A stretch of DNA of 17,216 bases. Source: a virus. Where the stretch lies: IMG/VR virus record IMGVR_UViG_3300043172_001413. The stretch is one strand, 5' to 3'. A program made the position numbers and the translations under genes. Under the pieces are notes generated by a model that did not search any database, was not told where the DNA came from, and saw only the letters and a list, made by a program, of their open reading frames with translations. Numbering within the stretch: position 1 is the stretch's first letter; the number at the start of each line of letters is the position of its first letter. Of the stretch, positions 428 to 17,216 are shown piece by piece.

Positions 428-455
428 GACATACTCCTAAATGTTCAATTCTTTT

Positions 456-665: not shown

Positions 666-675
666 AAATGTCTCC

Positions 676-1601: not shown

Positions 1602-1643
1602 CAGCTCACTCTCTTTTCAAGTTCAAAAAGCTGATCTTCACAT

Positions 1644-2755: not shown

Positions 2756-2758
2756 AGT

Positions 2759-3157
2759 TTATCCGATCTTTATTCTGATGAAATGCCCTATTTTTTTGAA
2801 TGATACTTCATGGCATTCTACTTTTTTTTCTACTCTTCCGTAGATATACATTTTTTGTCTACCATTACCTTCTATACCGCATATGAGCGGTTTGCCCAAA
2901 GCTTTGACCCAACCTATCATTGTTGTGTCATCGATAGCAGACGGTGAAGGAGAGCCTCCTGGATGAGTATGGCTAAATCCTAAAATTTTTTTAGCATTTC
3001 GGACAACTTTTTTCCAGTTAAAATCAACGGAACCAGGATTACCCTCGGATTCATAAATAAAAACACCATATAGATATTCTCCCCATTTATATCCATAGAT
3101 GATCCAGCAATTTTCATTGAAAATTCTGTCTATCAATTTATCCGCCCTGTCTATCAA
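2759..3157 (-). CDS. JAB/MPN (JAMM) metalloprotease, 132 aa
   Basis: Exact JAMM signature E...FSHTHPGGSPSPSAIDD (HxHx7Sx2D) with the upstream Glu in VFIYESEGN; the annotated start is a TTG preceded by AAGGCGG. Confidence 0.8.
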   Translation of the reverse strand: MIDRADKLIDRIFNENCWIIYGYKWGEYLYGVFIYESEGNPGSVDFNWKKVVRNAKKILGFSHTHPGGSPSPSAIDDTTMIGWVKALGKPLICGIEGNGRQKMYIYGRVEKKVECHEVSFKKIGHFIRIKIG

Positions 3158-3167
3158 TTTATCCGCC
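3126..3167. repeat. Perfect 21-nt tandem duplication (ctgtctatcaatttatccgcc x2) covering the SD/start region of the JAB gene
   Basis: Direct repeat read in the sequence; on the minus strand it duplicates GGCGGATAAATTGATAGACAG, i.e. RBS-like GGCGG plus TTG start plus IDR codons. Confidence 0.7.
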
Positions 3168-3283
3168 TTGTTTCAGTAAAATGAGAATAACAGCTATGAA
3201 TAGTAAAATGATAAAGGGTAAAACCCTATTTTTAGAAAGAGTAAAAACAACAAAAAATAAGGTGTCTTTAAAAATATTTTTCT

Positions 3284-4144: not shown

Positions 4145-5715
4145 GCTGCTTTTTTCTTTTTGCCGAAGTCTTTTCTCTTGGGAAGTGGTGTGTCCATGAT
4201 CTCATATAGAAGATCAAGTTTTGACTTCCGTGATAGTAAAGGTATAAGACCAGGTAATGCATAATAATCATCACCTTCAGGCTCGTAATAATCAAATGCA
4301 ATTTTAGCCAGTTTTAAACTCTGGCTGAGTTTTTTATTACCCCAATTAGTCTTCATGTATATAATGGTAATAGTAGGAGTAATGTTGTGCCTCAGTTCAT
4401 ACTTTTTAAAGGTATCAGCGAACCAAGGATCAGTATTCTCATCTTCATCAGTGATAATAACGATTTGTTCAACACAACGCCCTTTTCTCATAAGGAAATC
4501 CAAAGCTGAGCCAATGGATGTTCCGCCGTGAGCGTGCAACGGTTTGAAAGCTCTCTCCCAGGCAGACATACCAGTTTCGCCTTCTTCTGCAACAATCTCA
4601 CGCGCTGCTGTATCGAAAGCCACTACAATTAAATTAGCTTCAGTGGCTCCTGAGACGAGAGAAGAGACGCTTTTACCCACTTCGAGAGCTGTTTGCATAG
4701 ACCCACTTTTGTCGATAAAGATGGCAGTATCAACTTTTATGACACCTCTTTTCTTTATTTGGGTGTCTGCAATTTCCTCCAGAATTTTGACACTATTCTC
4801 ATCCTTGACTCTACCGGTTTTTACTGCTTGTTTTGACTTCAATGCAGAGACACTCTTTGATTTCTTTGCCTTTTCGAGTTTCTCTGTAATGAGTTTTTTG
4901 GTGTCCTCATTTTTCATCGCACCTTTTTCTTCAAGAGAAGCATAGTTGTTTATAACTTCCTGAGGAGACATGGCATTGATCAGAGCAACCAGAATTGATG
5001 GAGTAACTTTCTCAACCAATCCAACAGCGACGGTGTAAGGAATTTTGTTCTCTACAATCAGTCGTGCAACTTTTGCAGGGCTTTTCGTATCTGCTATCTG
5101 CTGAAAAACATTAAGCTTGCTGTCTTCAGGGTATTTGCTCTTGAAGAGAATCTCTTCAGCACGGTTGCTTGGTGCAATATGAAGAGTTGCATAGAGCCCT
5201 TTCAGATCATTTTTGTTTCTGATAACAATTGAATCAAAGATATCAGTTTCGGTTTCAATGTAATTTAAGAAAGCTCTGATATCATTTCTGAAAGATGTCG
5301 GTATATTCTTGAAGAGGCCTACAGTTTTTTCCTCTATAGTTATTTCATCGACTTTTCTCTTGCCTTTGAGAATTTTCTTCCCTGTTTTCCTTCTCAGCTT
5401 TATTTTCTTTCCTTTAACAAAGCCGACAACTTTCCTTTTCAGGAATGTAGGTAGATCTCTGAATAGAGCAAGACCAACTTCACGGTTTTCATGGTACGTA
5501 TCACATACAAGCGCTCCTACGAACACTTCTTTATGATCGCGTATATCTCCATTTTTGAAATACCATGCCGCCAGATGTGAGTAAAAGACTGGGTCGATTT
5601 TTTGCAGTTCCAGGTGCACATCTTTGAGTTTGTCAGTATCCCGGTGAGGGCAGCTTAAAAAGGAATTCAACATTCCGACTCTGACATCCTGTTCGTTTTC
5701 TCTAACTCTGTTCAT
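4141..5715 (-). CDS. 524-aa protein with a C-terminal von Willebrand factor A (vWA, MIDAS) domain, an alpha-helical N-terminal half and a lysine-rich basic linker; architecture resembles Ro60/Rsr (TROVE + vWA)
   Basis: MIDAS motif AIFIDKSGSMQ...(T)...VIITDEDEN; basic stretch KGKKIKLRRKTGKKILKGKRK; AAWYFKNG resembles Ro60 ADWYNEKG but the motifs are not colinear with Ro60, so TROVE is unproven; strong GGAGG SD. Confidence 0.8.
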   Translation of the reverse strand: MNRVRENEQDVRVGMLNSFLSCPHRDTDKLKDVHLELQKIDPVFYSHLAAWYFKNGDIRDHKEVFVGALVCDTYHENREVGLALFRDLPTFLKRKVVGFVKGKKIKLRRKTGKKILKGKRKVDEITIEEKTVGLFKNIPTSFRNDIRAFLNYIETETDIFDSIVIRNKNDLKGLYATLHIAPSNRAEEILFKSKYPEDSKLNVFQQIADTKSPAKVARLIVENKIPYTVAVGLVEKVTPSILVALINAMSPQEVINNYASLEEKGAMKNEDTKKLITEKLEKAKKSKSVSALKSKQAVKTGRVKDENSVKILEEIADTQIKKRGVIKVDTAIFIDKSGSMQTALEVGKSVSSLVSGATEANLIVVAFDTAAREIVAEEGETGMSAWERAFKPLHAHGGTSIGSALDFLMRKGRCVEQIVIITDEDENTDPWFADTFKKYELRHNITPTITIIYMKTNWGNKKLSQSLKLAKIAFDYYEPEGDDYYALPGLIPLLSRKSKLDLLYEIMDTPLPKRKDFGKKKKAA

Positions 5716-5747
5716 TCAATTTTCCTCCTTTTTGGTTAGAATGAATC

Positions 5748-6005
5748 TCAGGTACCGAAAGTCGCATTCGGTCTTACAGTAATATCACCTGACTTGTGGA
5801 ACTCAACAATCAGTTCGTTGAATTCATCTACCGGCTTGTCGAAATGATTTGCCAGGGCTCTTTTGATCTGGTCTCCGTTCAGATCTTTTGACTGAAGCTC
5901 AGCATCGTCTTCGATACCAAGACCAGCTCTGTCATCCACTGGGATAAGATCATCAAGATCAATATCCTCAGTTCTGCCATCATAAACGATGTGTACAGCG
6001 TCCAT
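5748..6005 (-). CDS. Small acidic protein with a beta-grasp-like N-terminus (candidate ubiquitin-like modifier), first gene of the operon; ends ...ATFGT
   Basis: MDAVHIVYDGRTEDIDL resembles the first beta-hairpin of ubiquitin (MQIFVKTLTGKTITLEV); AGGAGGAG SD; lies upstream of E2-like, JAB and E1 genes as in Ubl-E2-JAB-E1 operons; single C-terminal Gly followed by Thr. Confidence 0.45.
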   Translation of the reverse strand: MDAVHIVYDGRTEDIDLDDLIPVDDRAGLGIEDDAELQSKDLNGDQIKRALANHFDKPVDEFNELIVEFHKSGDITVRPNATFGT

Positions 6006-6043
6006 TATGACTCCTCCTGTTAAAGTAAAAAGTGTCCTCAGTT

Positions 6044-6074
6044 TATTATACCCATTTTCAACTGAGATTGTTCA
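6044..6074 (-). promoter_or_regulatory. Candidate sigma70-type promoter for the minus-strand operon (-35 TTGAAC, 19-nt spacer, -10 TATAAT)
   Basis: Minus-strand TATAAT at 6049..6044 and TTGAAC at 6074..6069; the spacer is 2 nt longer than optimal. Confidence 0.3.
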
Positions 6075-6194
6075 AGAAAATCACACTTTATTAATGATAC
6101 TGGTTTTTAGCTGTTAATTTAAACTAAAAAATGGTAATAATATAATTTTTTTCTGGGTCAAAGTAAAAAAAAATTAAAATAGTGAAAATAAGTG

Positions 6195-6223
6195 TTGACA
6201 GAACTTCTTTTTAGTGGTATATT
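6195..6223 (+). promoter_or_regulatory. Strong sigma70-type promoter: TTGACA, 17 nt, TG-n-TATATT (extended -10)
   Basis: TTGACA 6195..6200, spacer gaacttctttttagtgg, TATATT 6218..6223 with TG at 6215..6216; drives the plus-strand RNA cluster. Confidence 0.6.
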
Positions 6224-6258
6224 ATTCTTCGTAGAGTCTCTGCGCCCAAATTTATCGG

Positions 6259-6266
6259 GCGTACAT
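6259..6266 (+). promoter_or_regulatory. GCNTACAT motif copy A (gcgTACAT), 2 nt before tRNA-Val
   Basis: One of seven copies of (G)GCNTACAT-W, each immediately 5' of an RNA gene. Confidence 0.4.
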
Positions 6267-6268
6267 TT

Positions 6269-6343
6269 GAAGATATAGCTCAGTGGTAGAGCGATCATTT
6301 TACAGATGATAAGTCCCTGGCTCGAAACCAGGTTTCTTCACCA
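6269..6343 (+). tRNA. tRNA-Val (anticodon UAC), encoded CCA
   Basis: Cloverleaf folded by eye: acceptor GAAGATA/TTTCTTC (one T.T mismatch), D-arm GCTC-AGTGGTA-GAGC, anticodon stem ATCAT/ATGAT with loop TTTACAG, 5-nt variable loop, T-arm CCTGG-CTCGAAA-CCAGG (unusual C54), discriminator A, CCA. Confidence 0.75.
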
Positions 6344-6407
6344 AATCAGCACGATTAACTTGCGCAGGACTTTCTTTGAAATTATAGCAGAAAACCTAAC
6401 GGTAGAT

Positions 6408-6415
6408 GCTTACAT
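6408..6415 (+). promoter_or_regulatory. GCNTACAT motif copy B (gctTACAT)
   Basis: Motif copy preceding structured RNA B. Confidence 0.35.
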
Positions 6416-6524
6416 AACGTGAAGTCGAAAGACTTCCAGCCCCTCCACCTGCTCACAATCGGTAAGTGAGTTAGTGGTGGGGCTGGATTATCCCGGTTCG
6501 CCGGGAAGCACCTCAAACTTTTTT
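6416..6524 (+). ncRNA. Structured ncRNA B (~110 nt): GAAA-tetraloop hairpin, 12-bp GC-rich stem enclosing an inner hairpin, UUCG-tetraloop hairpin, then T6; boundaries approximate
   Basis: GAAGTC-GAAA-GACTTC (6421..6436); CCAGCCCCtCCAC/GTGGtGGGGCTGG (6436..6448 with 6474..6486) around CTCAC-AATCGGTAA-GTGAG; TCCCGG-TTCG-CCGGGA (6491..6506); T-run 6519..6524. Confidence 0.45.
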
Positions 6525-6567
6525 CTGCTTATTATAAATCGTAAATGGGCAACATCAGACATTGAGG

Positions 6568-6575
6568 GCTTACAT
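6568..6575 (+). promoter_or_regulatory. GCNTACAT motif copy C (gctTACAT)
   Basis: Motif copy preceding structured RNA C. Confidence 0.35.
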
Positions 6576-6671
6576 TAATTTTTAGGAATTAATCGTCCCC
6601 TGTAGAGTCAGGGGGCAAACCTCGGGGAAACCCGGGGAAAGCACTTAAGACTTGGTTGCTCATTTTTTTTT
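6576..6671 (+). ncRNA. Structured ncRNA C (~95 nt) ending in a T9 run: CCCCTG-TAGAGT-CAGGGG hairpin and a 7-bp GAAA-tetraloop hairpin; probable end of the first transcription unit
   Basis: Hairpins at 6597..6614 and 6620..6637; T9 at 6663..6671 preceded by only a weak AGCA/TGCT stem; boundaries approximate. Confidence 0.4.
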
Positions 6672-6676
6672 GGTCT

Positions 6677-6704
6677 TTGAAATTTTAATGTCACAACCTA
6701 ATTT
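6677..6704 (+). promoter_or_regulatory. Candidate promoter for tRNA-like D: -35 TTGAAA, 16 nt, -10 TAATTT; predicted start at the GCGTACAT motif
   Basis: TTGAAA 6677..6682; TAATTT 6699..6704; the -10 ends exactly 8 nt before TACAT, the same geometry as units E and F. Confidence 0.35.
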
Positions 6705-6709
6705 TTAAT

Positions 6710-6717
6710 GCGTACAT
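6710..6717 (+). promoter_or_regulatory. GCNTACAT motif copy D (gcgTACAT), abutting tRNA-like D
   Basis: The last T of TACAT is position 1 of the tRNA-like gene. Confidence 0.4.
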
Positions 6718-6790
6718 TATCGATAGCTCAGTGTAGAGCGCAAGAACGCTAATCTTGATGTCGTAGGCTCGAAACCTACTCGATGAACCA
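6717..6790 (+). tRNA. tRNA-like gene (74 nt with CCA) with an atypical anticodon loop ACGCUAA (C33; nominal anticodon GCU) and a short variable loop; identity and function uncertain
   Basis: Acceptor TTATCGA/TCGATGA (one G.U), D-arm GCTC-AGTGTA-GAGC, anticodon stem CAAGA/TCTTG, variable loop ATGTC, T-arm GTAGG-CTCGAAA-CCTAC (C54 again), discriminator A + CCA; a GCU anticodon without a long variable arm is not a normal tRNA-Ser. Confidence 0.6.
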
Positions 6791-6877
6791 AACAAAGCAT
6801 TTTCAACTTTTGTGACATTTATTATAAAATTTGTTCTTTGAAAAATGGGATCTGATATTTTTAATTGGCACATTTCC

Positions 6878-6896
6878 TAACTTTGGGAGCCTACAT
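6878..6896 (+). promoter_or_regulatory. -10-like TAACTT (6878..6883) plus GCNTACAT motif copy E (gccTACAT, 6889..6896)
   Basis: Same 8-nt gap between the -10-like hexamer and TACAT as in units D and F; no -35 at optimal spacing (TTGAAA lies 34 nt upstream). Confidence 0.3.
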
Positions 6897-7007
6897 TAGT
6901 TAATTTGGAGGTTCAATTCCTCCTCCCGGCACCACAAGTGCTTGATTTTCAAGTGCTTCTGATGCCGGGATGGCCAAATTGGTAAAGGCGACTGTCTTCA
7001 GAACAGT
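6897..7007 (+). ncRNA. Circularly permuted tRNA-like module: T-arm, acceptor 3' strand, ACCA, 29-nt linker hairpin, acceptor 5' strand, D-arm, complete anticodon arm with UCA
   Basis: GGAGG-TTCAATT-CCTCC (6907..6923), TCCCGGC-A-CCA (6924..6934), linker CAAGTGCTTGATTTTCAAGTGCTTCTGAT (imperfect inverted repeat), GCCGGGA (6964..6970, perfect complement of 6924..6930), TG, GCC-AAATTGGTAAA-GGC, G, ACTGT-CTTCAGA-ACAGT (6991..7007; U33, anticodon UCA, R37). Confidence 0.5.
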
Positions 7008-7067
7008 TTTAAAAAACTTGTTAACCTGCTCTTTTAACTTGAATGTGTCAATTTAAAATATCGGTCT

Positions 7068-7095
7068 TTGAAAAAAAAGGCATTTCACCTAATCT
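7068..7095 (+). promoter_or_regulatory. Candidate promoter for RNA F: -35 TTGAAA, 16 nt, -10 TAATCT
   Basis: TTGAAA 7068..7073; TAATCT 7090..7095; 8 nt upstream of TACAT (7104), matching the unit D geometry. Confidence 0.35.
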
Positions 7096-7100
7096 TTGGA

Positions 7101-7108
7101 GCCTACAT
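7101..7108 (+). promoter_or_regulatory. GCNTACAT motif copy F (gccTACAT)
   Basis: Motif copy preceding structured RNA F. Confidence 0.35.
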
Positions 7109-7227
7109 AAAAAATTCCGGTTCGACTCCGGGTTTCCCCGCCTGACAGACTTTAATAGGTCTACCAGGCGGGGAAACTAGCCGTGTGGATGGCATCAGAT
7201 AGTGAATCTGACAAAATAAATTTTTGT
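7109..7227 (+). ncRNA. Structured ncRNA F: T-arm-like hairpin (TCCGG-TTCGACT-CCGGG) followed by a perfect 13-bp hairpin and a 6-bp hairpin; 3' boundary uncertain
   Basis: 7116..7132 T-arm-like with canonical TTCGANT loop; GTTTCCCCGCCTG (7132..7144) / CAGGCGGGGAAAC (7165..7177) perfect inverted repeat with inner AGAC/GTCT; TCAGAT-AGTGA-ATCTGA 7195..7210. Confidence 0.3.
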
Positions 7228-7258
7228 TACTGCTCTTTTAACTTTGAAATGCTCTTTT

Positions 7259-7266
7259 AAATACAT
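7259..7266 (+). promoter_or_regulatory. Degenerate motif copy G (aaaTACAT)
   Basis: TACAT conserved but the upstream GC is replaced; precedes the last structured segment. Confidence 0.25.
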
Positions 7267-7392
7267 AGGATTGGGTGGTTACTCACCGAGTAATCTTTAT
7301 TTGGTTTGCCCAGCCCTCTCCTCAGAGTTACCTAGTTGGGCAATTAGCCGTAAGCCGGGAAGATTTTTCTTTAACTTCCCGGCTTATTTTTT
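7267..7392 (+). ncRNA. Structured RNA segment G (hairpins GGTTACTC-ACC-GAGTAATC and TTGCCCA...TGGGCAA) ending in the cluster terminator
   Basis: Inverted repeats read in the sequence; may be a 3' UTR-like tail of the F transcript rather than a separate RNA. Confidence 0.3.
7352..7392 (+). terminator. Rho-independent terminator: perfect 11-bp stem AAGCCGGGAAG/CTTCCCGGCTT, 12-nt loop, then ATTTTTT
   Basis: Inverted repeat 7352..7362 / 7375..7385 followed by T6 at 7387..7392; closes the RNA cluster 13 nt before the next CDS. Confidence 0.7.
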
Positions 7393-7404
7393 GTACCATT
7401 AAAT

Positions 7405-10050
7405 ATGAAATGTCCTATCTGTGGTAATTCCTATTTCTCTGATTTCTTGAAATGCCCCGCCTATAAAATCTGTCTCATCTGTAATTTATGCTGCCAAGAA
7501 ACTTTACCGGAAAAAGTATATGAAGGACTGGAAGAAAATGATGGGAAAGGTCCCGGTACAGGCCATGAAATGTCAAATGAAGAAAAATCTATTAATACAA
7601 ATCTCGCTAATTCCCTCTATCATATGTATCTTCCCCGGACTGTCCTGGATATCGGATCCAAATATCCTATTTTTCTCCATACTTTAAAAGACCGTGCAGA
7701 AGTACTGGGAATTGACGGTATCCCTGAAATTATTAAATATGGTGAGGAACTCGGTGTCCCGGTTATTAACACTGACTTTGAATCCATAGACATTACACCA
7801 TATAAGAATAAATTTGACCTGATAACCGTCATACATACCTTTGAGCATTTTTATAATCCATTTGAGACTCTAAAAAAGATTTTGGAGTGTCTGAGTTCTC
7901 GGGGAGTTCTCTATATGCGTATCCCGAATATGGACGTATCAGGCATTGACCGGGATTTTACTAAGCATCATTTAACGATCCACCCCTTTATTTATTCCAC
8001 GCAAGCTATGTATATGTTGAGTGAAAAACTGGGTTATGAGATATTCAGGATTGATGACCAGGGAGGGTACGGGCAGAGTGATTTTTTCTTCAGGAAAAGA
8101 AAGGATAAATTCACCCTTTCAGTATGTATGATTGTGAAAAATGAAGAAAAGAATATAACTGATTGTCTTGAGAGTATTAAAGACGTGGCAGATGAATTTG
8201 TGATCGTTGATACTGGATCTACGGATAGAACGAAAGAGGTGGTCTCAAAATACACCTCTAACATCTATGATTTCAAATGGATAGATGATTTTTCTGCTGC
8301 CCGGAATTTTTCTTTGAGTAAGGCTACCGGTGATTTTGTGCTCTGGCTCGATGCAGATGATATTGTAGAGAATCCAGAAGCTATTTTACCCTTGCTGAAG
8401 GAAAGTTTTGATGCCCATGATTTCAATATTATATATGGGAATGATAATTTCAGCCAGGCACGGTTGTTCCGAAATTTCAGAAATATCCGTTTTGCCGGCC
8501 GCGTGCATGAATACCCTGTGTTGGATGGTCTGTTTTTAGAGATTCAAACGGATTTACCCACACCACAACGGGTTATTTCTCATCAGCGGGAGACAAGAGT
8601 AAATGTGTATCATAAGACAGAGAAACACAGTACTGAGGACAGGTCAGAGAGAAACTACCGCATTTTAAAAAAAGAATTGGAAGAGGATCCAGATAATTCA
8701 CGGACTCTCTTTTATCTGGGTAACGTTTTGAAAGAATTAAAAAGTTATGATGAAGCTATTGAAACATACCGGAAATATCTGAAGGTTTCAACTTGGGTTG
8801 ATGAGAAATGGATGGCTCAAAAATATATAGGCTGTATACTTCTATGGCAGGGATATTATAAAGAAGCGATAGAGGAATTTAAAGGGGCTATTGAGATAGA
8901 TAATAGATGGGCAGAATCCTATTATTATATAGGGGAATGTCTTTTTTTATTAAAAGATTACGATGGATGTATTGATTGGATGTTGAAAGCTGTGGAGAAA
9001 AAGCCCCCTTTCTCACCCCTGTGGAAAGAAACATCTGTTTATCAGGATGCACCCTATCGTTATATTTTTGCTGTCTATGATGTAAAAGGAGATTACAAGA
9101 AAGCTATTCATTATTGTAAGAGAGCCTGCGAGAAAAAACCCGGGAATGAATGGCTTGAAGGCAGGTTATTACACTTTGAAAGTCTTCTTGGGGGCGATTT
9201 ACGCGTAATAGAGTGTTTCAGGCAGGGAGCACTGGGAGACTGTTTAATGACAACTGCAGCTCTGCGAGGTCTGAAAGAGAAAGATCCTGGATGTTTTATT
9301 CGATATGTAACGCATCCTCATAGTATGCAAATTCTTGAAGGTAATAAATATATCGATGAATTGGTTTCAGAATCAAAAGAAGAACATGCGCAGAAGATTT
9401 ACTTTTCCTATCCGGACAAGGACTCTCCGTTGGAGGATGAAGGGTATCCTGATAAACCTTTGAGCAGGCATTTGATAAAAATTTTCAATGAATGTGCTGG
9501 GTTACCTGATAATAGTATGGAAATGGAGTGTACTCTTTCTGAGAAAGAGGAAAATGTGGGTCGATCATTACGCCGTCAGTATAAGAAATATTTAACATTG
9601 CATGTTAAATCTGGATGGTCCGCTTATAAAGATTGGTATAATGACCGGTGGAGACTTGTTGTTGAAAAATTATTTCAAAGAGGTTATGTGACCGTACAAA
9701 TAGGTCACAAGGAGGATTTTTTATTAAGAAATACTGTTGATTTCCGGGGTCATACGATAAAAGAAGTTTTGTCTGCTATTAAATATGCTGATGTTCACAT
9801 GGGTATTGATAGTTTCACTAATCATGTTTCTGCGACGTTTTTTGCCCCTTCAGTGATTTTATTTGGTAGTACTTCACCTATAGGGTCAGGTTATGACCAG
9901 AACATAAATATTTACAAGGACTTGCCGTGTCAGCCCTGTTATCGGGAATATAAAAGTAAAGATCCGTGTCCATGTGGGAAGAAATGTATGAGTTTGATCA
10001 CGGTTGATGAGGTTCTGAAGAGCGTTATTAAACTTCTGGAAGAAAGATGA
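7405..10050 (+). CDS. 881-aa multidomain enzyme: N-terminal Cys-rich zinc ribbon, class I SAM methyltransferase, GT2 glycosyltransferase, TPR repeats, C-terminal GT9 (heptosyltransferase-like) glycosyltransferase
   Basis: CPICG...CPAYKICLICNLCC; VLDIGSK...FDLITVIHTFEHFYNP (methyltransferase motifs); LSVCMIVKNEE...VIVDTGSTD...WLDADD (GT2 DxD); TPR-like helices in the YLGNVLKELKSYDEAIETYRKYL region; GALGDCLMTT...HMGIDSFTNHVSATFFAPSVILFGSTSP (GT9 signature). Confidence 0.85.
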   Translation: MKCPICGNSYFSDFLKCPAYKICLICNLCCQETLPEKVYEGLEENDGKGPGTGHEMSNEEKSINTNLANSLYHMYLPRTVLDIGSKYPIFLHTLKDRAEVLGIDGIPEIIKYGEELGVPVINTDFESIDITPYKNKFDLITVIHTFEHFYNPFETLKKILECLSSRGVLYMRIPNMDVSGIDRDFTKHHLTIHPFIYSTQAMYMLSEKLGYEIFRIDDQGGYGQSDFFFRKRKDKFTLSVCMIVKNEEKNITDCLESIKDVADEFVIVDTGSTDRTKEVVSKYTSNIYDFKWIDDFSAARNFSLSKATGDFVLWLDADDIVENPEAILPLLKESFDAHDFNIIYGNDNFSQARLFRNFRNIRFAGRVHEYPVLDGLFLEIQTDLPTPQRVISHQRETRVNVYHKTEKHSTEDRSERNYRILKKELEEDPDNSRTLFYLGNVLKELKSYDEAIETYRKYLKVSTWVDEKWMAQKYIGCILLWQGYYKEAIEEFKGAIEIDNRWAESYYYIGECLFLLKDYDGCIDWMLKAVEKKPPFSPLWKETSVYQDAPYRYIFAVYDVKGDYKKAIHYCKRACEKKPGNEWLEGRLLHFESLLGGDLRVIECFRQGALGDCLMTTAALRGLKEKDPGCFIRYVTHPHSMQILEGNKYIDELVSESKEEHAQKIYFSYPDKDSPLEDEGYPDKPLSRHLIKIFNECAGLPDNSMEMECTLSEKEENVGRSLRRQYKKYLTLHVKSGWSAYKDWYNDRWRLVVEKLFQRGYVTVQIGHKEDFLLRNTVDFRGHTIKEVLSAIKYADVHMGIDSFTNHVSATFFAPSVILFGSTSPIGSGYDQNINIYKDLPCQPCYREYKSKDPCPCGKKCMSLITVDEVLKSVIKLLEER

Positions 10051-10055
10051 TAGGT

Positions 10056-10385
10056 TTATTCATAATACCGAAAGATAGGTTCAATTTTTTTTAGATATAA
10101 TTCACAAAATTTTTTCGTTTTTTCCGATTCTTCTTCAGTAGGTCCATCAAAAGTTTTGTCAATTTTTTTTGAGGATATTTCAAAAGTAATTGTGTAATGA
10201 TAACTTGATTGAAGATCTTCAGCTGAGAACTGTCCCAGACATTCGTATTTCCATTTTTTTGAGAAATACCCTTCCACTGTTTTTATTATTTTCTCACAAA
10301 TTTCATTTGCTTTTTCTTCATCCATAGCGATAACACTGATGTCAATAGTTTTTAATTCTTTTACTTCATGAATTGAGAATTTCAT
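10056..10385 (-). CDS. Hypothetical protein, 109 aa
   Basis: ORF with AGGAGAAAT SD-like sequence upstream; convergent with the glycosyltransferase gene; no family recognised. Confidence 0.45.
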   Translation of the reverse strand: MKFSIHEVKELKTIDISVIAMDEEKANEICEKIIKTVEGYFSKKWKYECLGQFSAEDLQSSYHYTITFEISSKKIDKTFDGPTEEESEKTKKFCELYLKKIEPIFRYYE

Positions 10386-10400
10386 TTATTTCTCCTTTTC

Positions 10401-11021
10401 TTAACTCTTATTTGCTACATAGGCTAAGCACGAATTCTTAGCTTCAATAATCTTAATAAAATCGTTTGCATTTCCACCTTTGTCCGGATGATATATTAAA
10501 GATAATTTTCTAAATGCTGTTTTAATACTATTTTCAGTAGCTTCAGATGTTAATCCCAACTTCTCGAAGGATTTAACTGGTGTAGGTATCGAAGCTTGTA
10601 TAAAAAAATTAGCAAAACGGTTAAACATATTATCAAAAGTACCAAAAGAACTAAAAGAACTAAAACTCTGCCACTCATAAAATCTTTGATTCTCTTCGCG
10701 CTGTTTATAATAAGCTGTTTCTTTCTTTTTAAGATAATCTCCAAACAATTCGTTTTTGACTTTAATAATTACAGTAGCATAAAAATATTTCCAAAGGCTT
10801 TCAGGTAAACCTTTTCCTTTAGCTTTGTTTGAAATACCATCGAATTTTTGCCTGATTTCCTTAATTACTATTTTAAAGCGATTATAATTAAAATTATTAG
10901 TTGATGCGAGGTATTCGATAACAGCCATAAAATCTGCGGTTAGATCGACTATGAAATTATTATGATTAAATTGCTCTTGAACGTCCAACTTATACTTTTT
11001 GATATATTCTTTTGGTTTCAT
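10401..11021 (-). CDS. J-domain (DnaJ-like) protein with a C-terminal J-domain, 206 aa
   Basis: LGLTSEATENSIKTAFRKLSLIYHPDKGG contains the diagnostic HPD tripeptide in J-domain helix II/III context; GAGGAG SD. Confidence 0.7.
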   Translation of the reverse strand: MKPKEYIKKYKLDVQEQFNHNNFIVDLTADFMAVIEYLASTNNFNYNRFKIVIKEIRQKFDGISNKAKGKGLPESLWKYFYATVIIKVKNELFGDYLKKKETAYYKQREENQRFYEWQSFSSFSSFGTFDNMFNRFANFFIQASIPTPVKSFEKLGLTSEATENSIKTAFRKLSLIYHPDKGGNANDFIKIIEAKNSCLAYVANKS

Positions 11022-11207: not shown

Positions 11208-14200
11208 ATGTCAAAGACCAAAAGAAAATGGATCTGTGGTGTTGGTGATTTACCTGATACCACTCAGAATTACAACGCTTTTCAAGCCTTACGTGCAGAA
11301 GACATTCCATACGATCCGACTCTAAGTATTAAAGATGCTATAGAATCTGGGCTGACCGGTGTTCAGGGGCCCACTGGAGCCACGGGTACTGGTATCCAGG
11401 GCGAGACAGGAGTCGCGGGTATTTATGGAGAAACGGGTGTACAGGGTCAAACTGGAATAGGAATTCAGGGAGAAACAGGTGTTGAAGGAATACAAGGTCA
11501 AACCGGAGCTTCGGGTGGTGGAGAAACAGGAATTCAGGGAGAAACAGGTGTTGAAGGAATACAAGGTCAAACCGGAGCTTCGGGTGGTGGAGAAACAGGG
11601 ATTCAGGGAGAAACAGGTGTTCAAGGAATTGCCGGACAAACCGGAGCTCTGGGGGGTGGAGACACAGGAGTCCAGGGCGAAACGGGTATCCAGGGAATTG
11701 CCGGACAAACTGGTGCGGGTATCCAGGGTCAGACGGGTGCTGGTATCCAGGGTCAAACAGGTATTCAAGGAGAGACTGGTGCTGGTACTCAGGGCGAAAC
11801 GGGTATCCAGGGAACGCAGGGTTCACAGGGCGAAACGGGTATTCAGGGCTATACAGGAGTCCAGGGAGAGACAGGAGTTCAGGGAACACAGGGAGAGACA
11901 GGAGTTCAGGGAACACAGGGCGAGACAGGAGTTCAGGGTGAGACCGGTACTGGTATCCAGGGAGAAACGGGTGTCGCTGGAGTAGCAGGAGAGACAGGAG
12001 TTCAGGGAGATCAGGGCGAGACAGGAGTAGCAGGAGTCGCAGGAGAGACGGGTGTCCAGGGAACACAGGGAGAGACAGGAGTACAGGGTCAGACGGGTGC
12101 TGGTATCCAGGGCGAGACAGGAGTTCAGGGAACACAGGGCGAGACAGGAGTTCAGGGTGAGACCGGTACTGGTATCCAGGGCGAAACGGGTGTCCAGGGA
12201 ACACAGGGCGAGACAGGAGTTCAGGGTGAGACCGGTACTGGTATTCAGGGCGAGACAGGAGTTCAGGGAGATCAGGGAGAGACAGGAGTACAGGGTGAGA
12301 TAGGTGAAACGGGTGTCCAAGGTGATATTGGTCCTCAAGGTCCAAGAGGAGACCAGGGGGAGACCGGAGTCCAGGGAATTCAAGGTATCCAAGGAACTAC
12401 AGGGGTCCAAGGTATCCAGGGTGTCACCGGGGTTCAGGGAGAAACAGGAATCCAGGGAACCCAGGGTAATCAAGGTGAAACAGGAGTTGAAGGTATACAG
12501 GGAGACACAGGTATAGCAGGTGTAGCTGGTGTCACGGGGACCCAAGGCTCACAGGGAGTAACAGGAGTTGAGGGTACACAGGGAGACACAGGTGCAGGTC
12601 TTCAAGGTGTTACGGGTATCCAAGGGATCCAAGGCCAGACAGGTGTACAGGGAGAGACCGGTATAGAGGGTGAAACTGGAATAGAGGGCTCTCAGTTTGT
12701 CGGTTTTATGTATAATGCTTTAACAAATAGTCAATCGGATACAGATCCAGGGACAGGGAAATTAAAATGGAGTACTGTTGGTCAGACAAATGCTGCTGAA
12801 TTATATGTAGATGATGAGGATAAAAACTCTATAGATTATAGTTCACTTTATATCACTTTAAAAAATAGTGATGTTATTCGTGTCCAGCGTCAGGAAAATC
12901 CCAAACAATTTCAAATTTTTAAAATAGATGCTGTTGTTGATAGAACAGGATGGTTTCGTTTTGAAGTTTCTTTTATTGTAAGTGGAGGTTCTGTTTTTAG
13001 TCTTAATGATAATCTTATTTTGATTTTTGAGATTTCTGGACCGCAGGGAGAGACAGGAGTAGCAGGAGAGACAGGAGTTCAGGGAGACACAGGTGTAGCA
13101 GGTGTAGCGGGGGAGACCGGAGTCCAGGGAGTTCAGGGTATCCAGGGTAATCAGGGCGAGACAGGAGTTCAGGGAGACACAGGAGCGGGAGTAGCCGGAG
13201 AGACAGGAGTTCAGGGAGACACAGGTATAGGTGTAGCGGGGGAGACCGGAGTCCAGGGAGTTCAGGGAGAGACAGGAGTAGCAGGAGAGACAGGAGTTCA
13301 GGGGACTCAGGGAGAGACAGGAGTACAGGGTCAGACGGGTGCTGGTATCCAGGGGGAGACCGGAGTTCAGGGAACACAAGGAGAGACTGGTTCTCAGGGT
13401 CAGACGGGTGCTGGTATCCAGGGCGAGACAGGAGTTCAGGGGACTCAGGGAGAGACTGGTTCTCAGGGTCAGACTGGTGCTGGTATCCAGGGCGAGACAG
13501 GAGTTCAGGGTACACAGGGAGAGACAGGTTCTCAGGGTCAGACTGGTGCTGGTATCCAGGGAGAGACAGGAGTTCAGGGTACACAGGGAGAGACAGGTTC
13601 TCAGGGTCAGACGGGTGCTGGTATCCAGGGAGAGACAGGAATTCAGGGTCAGACGGGTATTCAAGGAGTCACGGGAGAAACTGGAGTCGGTATCCAGGGA
13701 GAGACAGGAGTTCAGGGAACACAGGGAGAGACAGGAGTCCAGGGTCAGACTGGTGCTGGTATCCAGGGAGAAACAGGAATTCAGGGAACACAGGGAGTAA
13801 CAGGAGCTGGGATTCAAGGAGAGACAGGAGTTCAGGGAGCACAGGGCGATACAGGAGTTCAGGGAGCACAGGGCGAGACAGGAGTTCAGGGTCAGACGGG
13901 CGAGACAGGAGTTCAGGGCGAGACAGGAGTCGCGGGTGTAGCAGGAGAGACAGGAGTTGCGGGTATTCAGGGAGAGACCGGAAGTCAGGGTCAGACGGGT
14001 GTTCAGGGAGACACAGGTATAGCAGGTATAGCGGGGGAGACCGGAGTCCAGGGTAATCAGGGTATCCAGGGTAATCAGGGAGAGACAGGAGTTCAGGGTA
14101 CACAGGGAGAGACAGGTTCTCAGGGTCAGACGGGTGCTGGTATCCAGGGAGAGACAGGAATTCAGGGTCAGACGGGTATTCAAGGAGTCACGGGTATCCA

Positions 14201-14900
14201 GGGTGAGACAGGAGCGGGTGTAGCAGGAGAGACAGGAGTTCAAGGAGACACTGGTATAGGATCGTTTATTCAAATAGACCCTAATAATATAAATAGATAC
14301 GAAGTTGCAGACGGAGGTGGTGAAGAAGTATGGATTGTTTCAAGCTCAGCTACTTATTTATTAGTGCCCTGGACAAGAGCCAGTACAAGTTTAACAATTA
14401 CTCGAGCAGGACATGGCCATGTTACAGGAAATAGAATTATTGTCAGAAATTCTAATGTTGAATATCAGTCCACGCTTATAACATCATATAATGCAAATGA
14501 TTTTACAGTAACTACTGTAGATTCAGGAGCAACATCAGGCTCATCGGCGACCTATTTATTAGGTTTTTCTTTTAGTCATACCGGCATGCCTAAAACAGGT
14601 GGAACTTTAAGTGCTCCTATAGGAGATCATGCCGATGTGCAGCTTTTATCTATGAGGGTTCGTACTGGACCGAGAGCGGGTACAACTTATGACTTGGTAG
14701 TTCCGGCAAGTTCTCTTAATGGTGCAGGGGATAATACAAGTCTTGCGGATTGCTATATCCCTGATTTTAATGTTAGAACAGATTCTAATTCATTAGCTGC
14801 CATAGCAGCTACTATAGCCACAAATATCGGCGGTTCTTATACAACATTTAGATTTGGTAATTTAGGGTCGCTATCAAGATTTATTATACTCCAATTTTAA
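11208..14900 (+). CDS. Proline-free collagen-like (G-X-Y) fibre protein, 1230 aa: N-terminal head, collagen-like region 1 (~11340..12690), globular insert (~12691..13035), collagen-like region 2 (~13036..14265), C-terminal globular domain (~14266..14897); probable tail-fibre or surface-fibre protein
   Basis: AGGAG SD 6 nt before the ATG; hundreds of GETGVQG/GTQGETG/GAGIQG triplets with Thr/Gln at Y and no Pro; frequent G-X-G one-residue interruptions; non-repeat domains at both ends. Confidence 0.85.
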   Translation: MSKTKRKWICGVGDLPDTTQNYNAFQALRAEDIPYDPTLSIKDAIESGLTGVQGPTGATGTGIQGETGVAGIYGETGVQGQTGIGIQGETGVEGIQGQTGASGGGETGIQGETGVEGIQGQTGASGGGETGIQGETGVQGIAGQTGALGGGDTGVQGETGIQGIAGQTGAGIQGQTGAGIQGQTGIQGETGAGTQGETGIQGTQGSQGETGIQGYTGVQGETGVQGTQGETGVQGTQGETGVQGETGTGIQGETGVAGVAGETGVQGDQGETGVAGVAGETGVQGTQGETGVQGQTGAGIQGETGVQGTQGETGVQGETGTGIQGETGVQGTQGETGVQGETGTGIQGETGVQGDQGETGVQGEIGETGVQGDIGPQGPRGDQGETGVQGIQGIQGTTGVQGIQGVTGVQGETGIQGTQGNQGETGVEGIQGDTGIAGVAGVTGTQGSQGVTGVEGTQGDTGAGLQGVTGIQGIQGQTGVQGETGIEGETGIEGSQFVGFMYNALTNSQSDTDPGTGKLKWSTVGQTNAAELYVDDEDKNSIDYSSLYITLKNSDVIRVQRQENPKQFQIFKIDAVVDRTGWFRFEVSFIVSGGSVFSLNDNLILIFEISGPQGETGVAGETGVQGDTGVAGVAGETGVQGVQGIQGNQGETGVQGDTGAGVAGETGVQGDTGIGVAGETGVQGVQGETGVAGETGVQGTQGETGVQGQTGAGIQGETGVQGTQGETGSQGQTGAGIQGETGVQGTQGETGSQGQTGAGIQGETGVQGTQGETGSQGQTGAGIQGETGVQGTQGETGSQGQTGAGIQGETGIQGQTGIQGVTGETGVGIQGETGVQGTQGETGVQGQTGAGIQGETGIQGTQGVTGAGIQGETGVQGAQGDTGVQGAQGETGVQGQTGETGVQGETGVAGVAGETGVAGIQGETGSQGQTGVQGDTGIAGIAGETGVQGNQGIQGNQGETGVQGTQGETGSQGQTGAGIQGETGIQGQTGIQGVTGIQGETGAGVAGETGVQGDTGIGSFIQIDPNNINRYEVADGGGEEVWIVSSSATYLLVPWTRASTSLTITRAGHGHVTGNRIIVRNSNVEYQSTLITSYNANDFTVTTVDSGATSGSSATYLLGFSFSHTGMPKTGGTLSAPIGDHADVQLLSMRVRTGPRAGTTYDLVVPASSLNGAGDNTSLADCYIPDFNVRTDSNSLAAIAATIATNIGGSYTTFRFGNLGSLSRFIILQF
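13338..13682 (+). repeat. Five near-identical tandem copies of a 69-nt (23-aa GAGIQGETGVQGTQGETGSQGQT) unit inside fibre gene 1
   Basis: GGTGCTGGTATCCAGG recurs at 13338, 13407, 13476, 13545 and 13614 (period 69) with only synonymous or near-synonymous differences. Confidence 0.8.
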
Positions 14901-14915
14901 TGGTTTGGAAATAAA

Positions 14916-17216
14916 ATGGCTAGAATAATTAACGGTTCATTATATGTAGAACTGTATAATGCCACTGCGACTCCAGGTGAATATACTTTTTCTGATGCTA
15001 CGTTTAATAATCAAGCCGACGCTCTTGGCGAGGGTTCATTAAGTATTGATTCTGGCTATGTAATGTTTATTTCTTCTATAGATTCTATTTCTTTAGTTCC
15101 TATTCCTGGTGTTGCACATAGATATCAAATCACTTCTATTTCGGCTGCTGATGGTATTCATTTATCTGCTACTATTTTGTGGGATGAAGATGGTAGTGAA
15201 GTTGATAAACCTCAGAATCAAACATTTGCTCTTTTGACAGAGGATACTACAAATCTTAGTTATGGTTTACCTATATCAAGTGAAGTTTATGTTAATCTTC
15301 CTGGGGGTATAATAGAAGCCGCTTATAATGCAGATATAAGACACATTACAGATAAACTTAGTGGAATCACGGGTATCCAGGGAGAAACGGGTGTCCAGGG
15401 AGTTACTGGTGCCGGAACTTTTGGTACAACGGGTATCCAGGGAGAAACGGGTGTCCAGGGAGTTACTGGTGCCGGAACTTTTGGTACAACGGGAGTCCAG
15501 GGAGAAACGGGTGTCCAGGGCATTCAGGGCGGGACGGGTATTCAGGGGACCCAGGGTGATACCGGAGCTGGAATTCAGGGAGAGACAGGAGTTCAGGGAA
15601 CTCAGGGAGAGACAGGAGCTGGTATTCAGGGTGAAACAGGCGTAGCAGGTGTGGCCGGTGAAACAGGCATAGCTGGAGTTCAAGGAACTACTGGGGCAGG
15701 TATCCAGGGAGAGACAGGAGTAGCAGGTGTCCAGGGTCAGACGGGTGCTGGTATCCAGGGCGAGACCGGAGTTCAAGGAATTACTGGTGCTGGAACTTTT
15801 GGTACAACCGGTGTTCAGGGAGAAACGGGTGTTCAGGGGATACAGGGTCAGACGGGTGCTGGTATCCAGGGAGAGACAGGAGTAGCAGGTATCCAGGGTC
15901 AGACGGGTGCTGGTATCCAAGGAGAGACAGGAGTTCAAGGAGTTACTGGTGCTGGAACTTTTGGTACAACCGGTGTTCAGGGAGAAACGGGTGTTCAGGG
16001 GATACAGGGTCAGACGGGTGCTGGGATACAGGGAGAGACAGGAGTCCAGGGACAGACTGGTGCTGACGGTTCAACCGGCGAGCAGGGAGAGACGGGTGTC
16101 CAGGGAACACAGGGAGAGACAGGGATACAGGGTCAGACGGGTGCTGGGATACAGGGAGAGACAGGAGTCCAGGGAATTACCGGTGTTGGAACTTTCGGTA
16201 CAACAGGAGTTCAAGGAGAGACCGGTGTTCAAGGCATTCAGGGTCAGACGGGTGCTGGTATCCAGGGAGAGACAGGAGTTGCGGGTATTCAGGGAACTAC
16301 TGGTGCTGGTACTCAGGGAGAAACCGGAATCCAAGGTGAAACTGGTGCCATGGGTGGCGGTGATACAGGTATCCAGGGAGAAACGGGTGTCGCTGGAGTA
16401 GCAGGAGAGACAGGAATTCAAGGTACCCAGGGTGACCAGGGAGAGACAGGAGTACAGGGAACTCAAGGTGATCAGGGAGAGACCGGTGTTCAGGGAGTCC
16501 AGGGTCAGACGGGTGCGGGTATTCAAGGAGAAACAGGAGTCCAGGGTATCCAGGGAGAGACAGGTGTAGCAGGTGTAGCAGGTGAAACAGGTATCCAAGG
16601 TATTCAGGGAGTCACTGGCGTGCAAGGCATCCAGGGTGTGACTGGTGTTCAAGGTACTCAGGGTGACACGGGTGTACAGGGGATTCAGGGAGACACTGGG
16701 GTTCAGGGGACACAGGGCGACACAGGAGCCATGGGAACCCAAGGTGAAACGGGTGTGCAGGGTGTCCAGGGCGAGACAGGAGTGCAAGGAGATACTGGGG
16801 TCCAGGGAGATATTGGGGTCCAGGGAGAAACAGGAGTCCAGGGTGAAACGGGTGTCCAAGGGGAGCATGGTGAGGTTGCTGGAGCTCTTCTATATCTTCA
16901 TAACGAAGCTTCAGATATAGGTGGATATAAAGATCTGCGTGTAACAGTCCACGAAGGAGCCGAGGTCAAAGCAGATGCGACTGTGATCGGTGGCGGAGGT
17001 AATGTCGAAATTGCCCCTTTTGTTACACTCTCTACTTATCCCGGGGAAGGGATCTGGCCATATGGAGAATGGCTTTTAAAAACATATGCGAGCGTGAGCT
17101 CAGATGCCGGTGATTCGCGGGTAATAGCAACTGCTTACCGAAGGGATACGGACGGCACTGAATCATTTTTGTTTGATTCCACGACTACTGAGATCAGTGG
17201 GTTCTCTCCCGTTTTG
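14916..17216 (+). CDS. Second collagen-like fibre protein (partial, >767 aa; continues past window end): 148-aa N-terminal domain, long G-X-Y region with recurring GAGTFGTTG interruptions, start of a C-terminal globular domain from ~16870
   Basis: ATG 14916 lies 15 nt after the stop of fibre gene 1; frame open to the window end; not in the supplied ORF track because no stop occurs in the window. Confidence 0.8.
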   Translation, partial: MARIINGSLYVELYNATATPGEYTFSDATFNNQADALGEGSLSIDSGYVMFISSIDSISLVPIPGVAHRYQITSISAADGIHLSATILWDEDGSEVDKPQNQTFALLTEDTTNLSYGLPISSEVYVNLPGGIIEAAYNADIRHITDKLSGITGIQGETGVQGVTGAGTFGTTGIQGETGVQGVTGAGTFGTTGVQGETGVQGIQGGTGIQGTQGDTGAGIQGETGVQGTQGETGAGIQGETGVAGVAGETGIAGVQGTTGAGIQGETGVAGVQGQTGAGIQGETGVQGITGAGTFGTTGVQGETGVQGIQGQTGAGIQGETGVAGIQGQTGAGIQGETGVQGVTGAGTFGTTGVQGETGVQGIQGQTGAGIQGETGVQGQTGADGSTGEQGETGVQGTQGETGIQGQTGAGIQGETGVQGITGVGTFGTTGVQGETGVQGIQGQTGAGIQGETGVAGIQGTTGAGTQGETGIQGETGAMGGGDTGIQGETGVAGVAGETGIQGTQGDQGETGVQGTQGDQGETGVQGVQGQTGAGIQGETGVQGIQGETGVAGVAGETGIQGIQGVTGVQGIQGVTGVQGTQGDTGVQGIQGDTGVQGTQGDTGAMGTQGETGVQGVQGETGVQGDTGVQGDIGVQGETGVQGETGVQGEHGEVAGALLYLHNEASDIGGYKDLRVTVHEGAEVKADATVIGGGGNVEIAPFVTLSTYPGEGIWPYGEWLLKTYASVSSDAGDSRVIATAYRRDTDGTESFLFDSTTTEISGFSPVL
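15369..15530 (+). repeat. Tandem 60-nt repeat (two perfect copies plus one diverged copy) encoding TGIQGETGVQGVTGAGTFGT, inside fibre gene 2
   Basis: 15369..15428 and 15429..15488 are identical; the GGTGCTGGAACTTTTGGTACAAC (GAGTFGTT) element recurs again near 15787, 15946 and 16188. Confidence 0.8.

Follow-up and report, generated by a model that had tools for sequence, protein, structure and literature searches.

In Clostridioides difficile the SgtA protein (358 aa), composed of a GT-A domain and four tetratricopeptide repeats (TPRs), is encoded immediately 5' of bclA3 and in vitro attaches beta-O-linked N-acetylglucosamine (GlcNAc) to threonines of BclA3 collagen-repeat peptides; it adds GlcNAc only, and the enzymes elongating the BclA3 glycan have never been found (PMC7157674). 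GmaR of Listeria monocytogenes, which GlcNAcylates flagellin, comprises a glycosyltransferase (GT) domain followed by TPRs (PMC9638930). In the protein heptosyltransferase TibC four cysteines bind Fe(III) as an 'iron finger', on which assembly and protein-substrate binding both depend (PMC4358343). The 17,216-nt stretch of viral DNA analysed in this work (IMG/VR record IMGVR_UViG_3300043172_001413, the whole of it referred to below as the window) carries a gene for an 881-aa protein in which a Zn ribbon, a methyltransferase, a family 2 glycosyltransferase (GT2), TPRs and a family 9 glycosyltransferase (GT9) are combined, and downstream of it two genes for collagen-like fibre proteins. The 881-aa protein is probably a soluble, single-chain cytoplasmic enzyme that glycosylates the collagen-like proteins of a huge phage. 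The gene and its parts are listed below.

7405..10050, + strand: gene of the 881-aa, putatively trifunctional enzyme (Zn ribbon, methyltransferase, GT2, TPR, GT9); ATG start, open reading frame (ORF) list, Pfam
7405..7497, + strand: N-terminal four-Cys Zn ribbon (C3, C6, C23, C26); Cys invariance in the alignment
7573..8100, + strand: class I S-adenosylmethionine (SAM)-dependent methyltransferase domain, aa ~57-232, with the variant motif I L-D-I-G-S-K-Y-P
8113..8619, + strand: GT2 (GT-A) domain, aa ~237-405; matches to Glycos_transf_2, GmaR, SunS and phrog_13126
8620..9195, + strand: TPR region, aa ~406-597, probable substrate-recognition scaffold; matches to TPR_2, TPR_1 and the TPRs of OGT
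9196..10047, + strand: GT9-type GT-B domain, aa 598-881, with G-D612, K742 and D802-S-x-x-x-H807
9928..9987, + strand: four-Cys knuckle (C842, C845, C855, C861) in the C-lobe of GT9; alignment to the TibC hidden Markov model (HMM)

An initial sequence-only reading of the window had placed a methyltransferase, a GT2 with a DxD motif, TPRs and a heptosyltransferase-like GT9 behind a Zn ribbon on one chain, and had named the domain HMMs by which this could be checked. With the curated Pfam cut-offs applied to the 881-aa protein, all four domain kinds exceeded them: Methyltransf_23 (PF13489) at aa 77-213 with 42.0 bits against a cut-off of 27 (1e-10), Glycos_transf_2 (PF00535) at aa 239-361 with 77.8 bits against 23.3 (1.2e-21), TPR_2 in four stretches within aa ~411-595 with 68.8 bits against 27 (1.6e-19) and Glyco_transf_9 (PF01075) at aa 691-852 with 40.4 bits against 22 (2.8e-10); TPR_1 was matched as well (1.2e-14). 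The single-chain layout is thus borne out by Pfam and by the homologues, and so are the details given for the two transferases: the GT2 DxD is D316-A-D318-D319, invariant across 37 homologues, and in GT9 the residues D612, K742, D802 and H807 are invariant and fall on WaaC motifs. The highest 19-residue Kyte-Doolittle average of the protein is 1.3, which leaves no transmembrane segment, and in the absence of any hydrophobic segment the enzyme should therefore be soluble and cytoplasmic. A mis-assembled or chimeric ORF at 7405-10050 was ruled out by nearly full-length homologues with an identical domain order.

These homologues are numerous. About 90 of the best 120 matches among 5.8 billion proteins cover most of the enzyme in the same domain order; in an exhaustive search with clustering at 50% identity, nearly full-length matches in one stretch were seen for at least 20 of the best 150 representatives, and other representatives among the best 150 differ by the absence of the methyltransferase domain only. 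Homologues 860-950 aa long share its order of domains and align to it almost from end to end, at 29-86% identity. The fusion is therefore recurrent and widespread and not, as had been supposed on first reading, unusual. Conservation was assessed in an alignment of 37 homologues (29-86% identity), and invariant residues were found in the methyltransferase, GT2 and GT9 domains alike; thus all three catalytic modules are under selection, and judging by the sequences the fusion is conserved and apparently active. Some members are longer: P0022 and P0023 (1428-1443 aa) have extra sulfotransferase and Glyco_trans_1_2 domains, P0018 and P0019 (~1160 aa) an extra Glyco_trans_1_2 and P0002 (1281 aa) intein/LAGLIDADG domains, and at locus L124 a separate sulfotransferase gene (21126-21923) lies amid five G-x-T collagen-like ORFs. 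In view of these sulfotransferases the fibre glycans may also be sulfated in some lineages.

The database records of the homologues bear automatic names only and none appears to be characterised; in the literature no account was found of this fusion, nor of a heptosyltransferase together with collagen-like proteins. Iyer et al. (2010) predicted hydroxylation and sulfation for bacterial collagen-like proteins, not this enzyme. Known already are GT-A+TPR enzymes acting on collagen Thr, iron-finger protein heptosyltransferases and virus-encoded glycosylation of virions; not described, as far as was found, are the fusion of three activities, a GT9 of canonical scaffold that bears a Cys finger, and a pairing with G-x-T collagen that is conserved among phages and bacteria. 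Megablast of window positions 1-10400 against GenBank phages gave no match, no isolated phage being close, and tblastn against phages gave GT2-TPR matches only, at up to 27% identity and none reaching 80% query coverage. An identical enzyme sequence was present on a 46-kb contig and on another contig of 0.2-1 Mb, a 65%-identical homologue on a viral contig of 469,617 bp (IMGVR_UViG_3300028840_006907) and a 35%-identical one on a viral contig of 370,804 bp. In the 469-kb relative the genes run ThiF, a 518-aa protein at the position of the von Willebrand factor A (vWA) protein of the window, an 88-aa ORF, a gap and the enzyme, followed 3' by a small minus-strand ORF and a 2980-aa G-x-T collagen-like protein. 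Since the window shares this gene order, it derives from a huge phage.

Among solved sequences the GT2 domain was nearest to the GT domain of Listeria GmaR (7.8e-29 over aa 238-426), further relatives being the S-glycosyltransferase SunS (1.2e-17) and 7msk (1.9e-14); by sequence comparison, its closest solved relatives are thus protein or peptide glycosyltransferases. The top NCBIfam model for the enzyme was the SunS family, at 71.5 far below the equivalog cut-off of 350, and among the PHROGs phrog_13126, labelled only 'beta-1,4-glycosyltransferase', matched GT2-TPR at 2e-43. Invariant in the 37 sequences are E247, D274, T276, D316, D318, D319, R353, H368 and E369, which include the nucleotide-binding motif D274-x-T276 and the metal/nucleotide-sugar DxD motif (D316/D318/D319). 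The TPR region found the TPRs of OGT among its solved-structure matches, and the peptide-binding TPR of prolyl-4-hydroxylase (PF23558) gave a weak, sub-threshold match (E 0.026). The TPRs (aa 406-597) directly follow the GT-A domain (aa 237-405), which is the order of protein O-glycosyltransferases of the SgtA/GmaR type.

SgtA may be regarded as the closest functional parallel to GT2-TPR, a likeness that rests on its published description and not on a sequence alignment: in both, GT-A is followed by TPRs, the gene adjoins a collagen-like gene, the repeats present Thr in G-x-T-type triplets, and the enzyme would be soluble and metal-dependent as described for SgtA (PMC7157674). The difference is that SgtA has one activity in 358 aa, whereas here the module sits between a methyltransferase and GT9. 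GmaR and SunS are the solved sequences closest to GT2, GmaR with the same GT-TPR order, and both have protein or peptide acceptors; these acceptors are, however, flagellin and a cysteine of sublancin, and the antirepressor domain of GmaR is absent here.

The GT9 domain showed its best fold and profile matches to the lipopolysaccharide (LPS) heptosyltransferases WaaC and WaaF and to the Veillonella GT9 structure 3tov, WaaC being closest by profile score (1.2e-9). R606, G608, G611, D612, G737, W738, S739, K742, G800, D802, S803 and H807 are invariant in the 37 homologues. In the alignment with WaaC, D612 coincides with the Asp of G-D, K742 with the Lys of R-D-D-K and D802...H807 with D-T-G-L-S-H, motifs which we take to have catalytic and donor-binding roles. 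The G-D motif, K742 and the D-x-x-x-x-H donor motif thus align with WaaC, WaaF and 3tov, whereas the region of the Cys finger does not; these proteins also differ in being stand-alone, WaaC/WaaF-type enzymes having lipid A-core acceptors, while the GT9 described here is ~284 aa long, fused to protein-directed modules and paired with collagen-like genes.

The cysteines C842, C845, C855 and C861 are invariant in the 37 homologues. In the TibC HMM alignment C842, C845 and C861 fall on C339, C342 and C370 of TibC, and C855 lies two columns off C358, both being followed by Pro; the WaaC alignment ends ahead of the Cys cluster, whereas the TibC alignment spans it. The four-Cys knuckle is likely, from these alignments, to be the counterpart of the TibC iron finger, the feature separating protein from LPS heptosyltransferases. 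A TibC-type Cys finger would then not be confined to the autotransporter heptosyltransferases but occur also on a GT9 scaffold that is canonical in other respects. The enzyme resembles TibC and AAH, the bacterial autotransporter heptosyltransferases (BAHT), in this finger inserted in the GT9 C-lobe, and differs in lacking the N-terminal beta-barrel of TibC and its atypical N-lobe of four strands. Its own N-lobe is predicted to consist of alternating strands and helices of Rossmann type (secondary structure of the AlphaFold2 model) and carries G-A-L-G-D, as do LPS heptosyltransferases including WaaC. Pro300 and Trp305 of TibC correspond to D802 and H807, which match the D-T-G-L-S-H of WaaC instead, so that the TibC stereoselectivity residue P300 aligns with D802. 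With TPRs in place of the barrel and a Rossmann-type N-lobe bearing G-A-L-G-D, the enzyme is therefore not a BAHT member.

A rival explanation has the enzyme act on a lipid-linked or LPS-core acceptor in the host envelope, for example in seroconversion or superinfection exclusion, and the automatic JGI names ('ADP-heptose:LPS heptosyltransferase / glycosyltransferase involved in cell wall biosynthesis') point that way. Such an acceptor is quite unlikely. The GT9 domain does retain the heptosyltransferase catalytic residues and scores closest to WaaC, the GtrB-like phrog_841 is among the GT2 matches (1.3e-6), and at locus L125 GDP-sugar epimerase/dehydratase genes and another GT2 lie nearby; set against this, the enzyme has a TPR module and no membrane segment, the nearest relatives of its GT2 act on proteins or peptides, the alignment that covers the four-Cys finger is that of TibC, the one of WaaC stopping short of it, neither the window nor the bacterial islands described below contain LPS or polysaccharide genes, and an acceptor of this kind would not account for the conserved collagen-like partner. 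Genes of the heptose pathway were likewise absent from the window.

In the N-terminal part, CPxC...CxxC lies within the first 31 residues and its four Cys are invariant in 20 of the 20 homologues with complete N-termini. The methyltransferase has D82, G84 and P88 (motif I) and H144 invariant in the 37-member alignment and D104 nearly so, and SAM binding by this domain is plausible on the sequence evidence. The AlphaFold2 model of the Zn ribbon with the methyltransferase (pLDDT 92.6) had as its nearest structural match the nucleotide-sugar methyltransferase TcaB9, to which 214 of 236 residues align; since 214 residues exceed the methyltransferase core of ~175, the ribbon region is probably within this alignment. 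The profile-search alignment of 5t64, a sugar 3-C-methyltransferase, begins at position 23 of the profile, the site of C23 in the second CxxC. Peptide N-methyltransferases (BamL, NRMT1) are also among the structural neighbours of the methyltransferase. The nucleotide-sugar C-3-methyltransferases TcaB9, KijD1 and TylC3 thus share with this module an N-terminal four-Cys Zn domain and a class I methyltransferase core. PF08421 and PF08484 gave no Pfam match in the 881-aa enzyme even with E values up to 1 admitted, the methyltransferase lies just a few residues ahead of GT2, and on these grounds the enzyme is therefore not a TcaB9-type member; a 4,6-dehydratase supplying a 4-keto sugar, as for TcaB9-type enzymes, was not found here.

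The proposed substrates are encoded 3' of the enzyme gene, as listed below.

11208..14900, + strand: collagen-like fibre protein 1, 1230 aa, proposed substrate; Pfam Collagen 4.7e-100, tail-fibre PHROGs
14916..17216, + strand: collagen-like fibre protein 2, at least 767 aa and running past the window end, proposed substrate; Pfam Collagen 1.4e-55

Both Pfam scores agree with the Thr-rich collagen-like fibres that the sequence-only reading had noted downstream; its placing of the enzyme 'immediately upstream' of them needs correction, since a 1.16-kb gap with two small minus-strand ORFs intervenes. Fibre 1 consists of two G-x-T/G-x-Q blocks and two globular parts, one in the middle (aa 497-610) and one at the C terminus (aa 1005-1230). 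Its G-X-Y runs comprise 747 aa, with 94 Thr at position Y, 3 Pro and 0 Lys, and those of fibre 2 comprise 390 aa with 48 Thr at Y. The repeats are of the type G-E-T-G-V-Q, with almost no Pro and no Lys. Modification of mimivirus collagen proceeds via hydroxylysine, and the present fibres are without Lys.

Collagen-like proteins rich in Thr and poor in Pro are frequent among bacteria and viruses. In the collagen-like proteins of both groups triplets with Thr occur more often than expected, and the peptide (Gly-Pro-Thr)10 forms a triple helix only once its Thr is galactosylated (PMC11923368). With almost no Pro and no Lys, and with this precedent, glycosylation is therefore plausibly needed for the stability of the fibres. 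Whether glycosylation precedes or follows helix formation, and how Thr-rich, Pro-poor collagens fold without hydroxyproline, are open questions (PMC11923368). The closest wider parallels are BclA of Bacillus anthracis, which carries oligosaccharides on its collagen-like region as cited in PMC11923368, and the mycobacteriophages and giant viruses whose self-encoded enzymes glycosylate virion proteins or surface fibres (PMC12619734; review PMC9614988); these systems, however, employ several separate enzymes, and none was found with this fusion.

The phage fibre proteins share an N-terminal segment, M-(S/A)-K-T-K-R-K-W...(L)RA(E/Q)DIPYD..(T/L)S(I/V)KDAI, encoded at 11208-11390 of the window, 13236-13400 of L002, 13574-13740 of L083 and 21048-21200 of L084, which may be an attachment or recognition element. 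The collagen-repeat DNA (11208-17216) has a GC content of up to 0.57, a strong GC skew and several open frames on both strands, e.g. 12858-14273 (-, 471 aa) and 16071-16868 (-, 265 aa); the minus-strand and alternative-frame ORFs within it appear, by judgement, to be artefacts of the repeats.

The pairing of enzyme and collagen-like genes was compared across loci of homologues, part of which were located by a scan of genome contigs with the GT9 alignment, and a locus was counted as positive if 80 or more residues of one of its ORFs lay in G-X-Y runs at least six triplets long. The 26 loci with a full-length homologue came from huge phages, 43-kb siphophage-like contigs and GTDB genomes, the bacterial ones from beta-proteobacteria (contigs up to 1.3 Mb), Casimicrobiaceae, the isolate Methylocucumis oryzae Sn10-6, Burkholderiaceae, Vicinamibacterales, Holophaga and one gamma-proteobacterium. 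A collagen-like ORF was present in the flank at 18 of these 26 loci, and Thr was the first or second commonest residue at position Y in all 18, over a GC range of 0.37-0.71. The stand-alone GT9 proteins (290-370 aa, 28-40% identity to this GT9 domain, loci L087-L102) of Vampirovibrionales, Neomarinimicrobiota, Fidelibacterota and KSB1 metagenome-assembled genomes had no collagen-like neighbour, so that GT9-only loci scored 0 of 13 against 18 of 26 for the full-length enzyme (Fisher p = 2.6e-5, a test that overstates independence because the loci are partly related and represent about 8 separate lineages). Of the eight negative loci, L086, L095, L098 and L100 extend for less than 2 kb beyond the enzyme gene in one or both directions and L093 for ~6 kb in each; the other three, L085, L125 and L004, are taken up below.

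In bacterial chromosomes the enzyme, the collagen-like genes and one or two small genes form an island amid housekeeping genes, flanked by e.g. PTS enzyme I, MFS and MMPL genes. Several of the bacterial partner proteins have, by eye, hydrophobic, signal-peptide-like N-termini, which would fit cytoplasmic glycosylation ahead of export, as with TibC substrates. At phage loci with GT2-TPR only, a collagen-like ORF was found in 12 of 78 cases, all of them G-x-T and 9 of the 12 within ~1 kb of the glycosyltransferase gene. No support came from phage PaBG, in which the GT2-TPR gene does not lie beside a collagen-repeat fibre gene.

The proposal that the fibres are the substrate of a protein-directed enzyme, made at first from the window alone, is supported by the nature of the GT2 relatives GmaR and SunS, by the position of a GT-A+TPR enzyme beside a collagen-like gene, as in the proven SgtA/BclA3 pair (PMC7157674), by the four-Cys finger that GT9 shares with the protein heptosyltransferase TibC, and by the G-x-T collagen-like genes at 18 of 26 loci against none of the GT9-only ones.

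Alternatively, the enzyme could glycosylate and methylate different proteins of the phage or its host, for instance those of the capsid, the tail tube or fibres without collagen repeats; its position in a structural-gene region would then suffice to account for the collagen-like neighbours. At L085 no collagen-like ORF is present, and next to the homologue lie an SLT lytic transglycosylase and a possible tape-measure protein of 1041 aa; the L004 neighbours have short collagen-like stretches only, the major capsid gene of podovirus MW202524 is followed by a GT2-TPR homologue, accompanied by further glycosyltransferases and a methyltransferase, and reported glycosylation of mycobacteriophage capsids and tail tubes is cited in PMC12619734. 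We nevertheless consider this explanation unlikely, since the pairing persists in bacterial chromosomes, where no phage structural module is present, and Thr at position Y is conserved in all collagen-like partners. Hypermodification of phage DNA, i.e. glycosylation and methylation of bases, is extremely improbable: phage glycosyltransferases do often modify DNA (PMC12619734) and a UvrD helicase gene lies close to the enzyme in related loci, whereas TPR-GT2/GT9 types were not met among DNA-modifying enzymes in the material found, the window holds no hydroxymethylase or base-modification genes, and the family occurs also in bacterial chromosomes beside secreted collagen-like proteins. In the 370-kb phage (L004, 4410-7307) this UvrD-type helicase gene beside the enzyme is apparently split by an intein-like insert, as read from the translation.

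Several points weigh against glycosylation of collagen-like fibres by the enzyme, besides the partial relatedness of the loci and the descriptive nature of the SgtA comparison. Loci L085 and L125 are true negatives, the complete 10 kb to either side of the enzyme gene containing no collagen-like ORF, and the fibre-like proteins adjacent to the enzyme at L004 contain collagen-like stretches of 21 residues only; therefore either the enzyme accepts more than long collagen repeats or, in these cases, the gene of its substrate lies elsewhere. The classical acceptors of GT9 enzymes are LPS cores. Motif I of the methyltransferase, D-I-G-S-K-Y-P, is without the second and third Gly, yet strictly conserved, and the C-terminal sugar-binding domain of TcaB9 is absent here (~405 against 236 modelled residues). 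Finally, there are no nucleotide-sugar biosynthesis genes within the window.

Observed were the domain architecture, the folds, the conservation of the catalytic residues and the conserved linkage to genes of G-x-T collagen-like proteins; on this basis the following mechanism of fibre glycosylation may be proposed. The TPR region would hold the unfolded or folding fibre chain, so that GT2-TPR would work like SgtA and GmaR, and the metal-dependent GT-A domain would put a first sugar on the Y-position Thr of G-x-T, at ~94 sites in fibre 1. GT9 would add a second sugar, either onto the first (elongation) or directly onto other Ser/Thr like TibC, with the four-Cys metal finger in a structural role, probably aiding assembly or protein-substrate binding. 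The Zn-ribbon and methyltransferase module would methylate sugar, as a donor precursor or on the glycan, and the fibres would in consequence become densely glycosylated and partly methylated. The Thr sugars could replace hydroxyproline as helix stabiliser in this Pro-free, Lys-free collagen and alter the surface chemistry of the fibre. We infer the TPRs to be the recognition element, and the product to be a single methylated oligosaccharide rather than two separate monosaccharide modifications.

In a variant of this mechanism that does not exclude it, both transferases would initiate, each placing a monosaccharide on protein, and the methyltransferase would act on protein or on sugar. The TibC-like finger, which suggests direct contact with protein, is in keeping with two initiating transferases, and so are SgtA, which alone adds just GlcNAc while the elongating enzymes for BclA3 were never found, and the peptide N-methyltransferases BamL and NRMT1 among the structural neighbours of the methyltransferase; the variant is possible, though we do not favour it. 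More speculatively, the family as a whole could be a dedicated collagen-maturation enzyme, building on Y-Thr a methylated di- or oligosaccharide required for the triple helix, with GT9 as an evolutionary link, a view that we put forward tentatively. If it were true, the glycan would be the functional counterpart of animal prolyl hydroxylation, and the GT9 domain would link LPS heptosyltransferases to iron-finger protein heptosyltransferases.

Glycosylation of the fibres by the 881-aa enzyme would predict heavily glycosylated long fibres in a group of huge phages (contigs of 370-470 kb) and would affect host recognition, stickiness and protease resistance. An enzyme encoded beside its substrate would provide a two-gene system expressible in E. 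coli, in which collagen folding can be tested, and a possible route to glycosylated recombinant collagens.

The remaining genes and elements of the window are listed below.

2108-6005, - strand: divergent operon 5' of the enzyme gene, encoding ThiF, JAB, 286-aa, vWA and 85-aa proteins
6269-6343: tRNA-Val(TAC)
6717-6787: tRNA-like element; Rfam only, 51 bits, no call by ARAGORN
6907-6971: T-arm and acceptor-like piece (GGAGGUUCAAUUCCUCC...CACCA); partial match to the transfer-messenger RNA (tmRNA) model, 27.5 bits, below threshold
10056-10385, - strand: 109-aa ORF between the enzyme and fibre 1 genes
10401-11021, - strand: 206-aa protein with a C-terminal J domain; DnaJ 9.4e-9

Neither the 109-aa ORF nor the 206-aa J-domain protein was found in related phage loci by tblastn, and both are therefore lineage-specific; the J-domain co-chaperone sits beside very long fibre genes. 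The 1.4 kb between the divergent operons (6005-7405) contains no convincing ORF and holds the tRNA genes. The element at 6717-6787 has the anticodon loop ACGCUAA, in which C takes the place of the expected U33.

The minus-strand operon encodes a ThiF/E1-like protein of 215 aa (ThiF 7.6e-19; also the 6A-MBL cap2_3 model, 4.8e-13), a JAB peptidase of 132 aa and proteins of 286 aa, 524 aa with a C-terminal vWA domain, and 85 aa. A Ro60/TROVE identity of the 524-aa vWA protein, with Y-RNA-like neighbours, was considered and dropped, as phmmer against the PDB gave no Ro60 match. The operon looks like a ubiquitin-like conjugation/deconjugation set, and at L001 and L083, two related huge-phage loci, the order of ThiF and of flanking ORFs similar in size is preserved.

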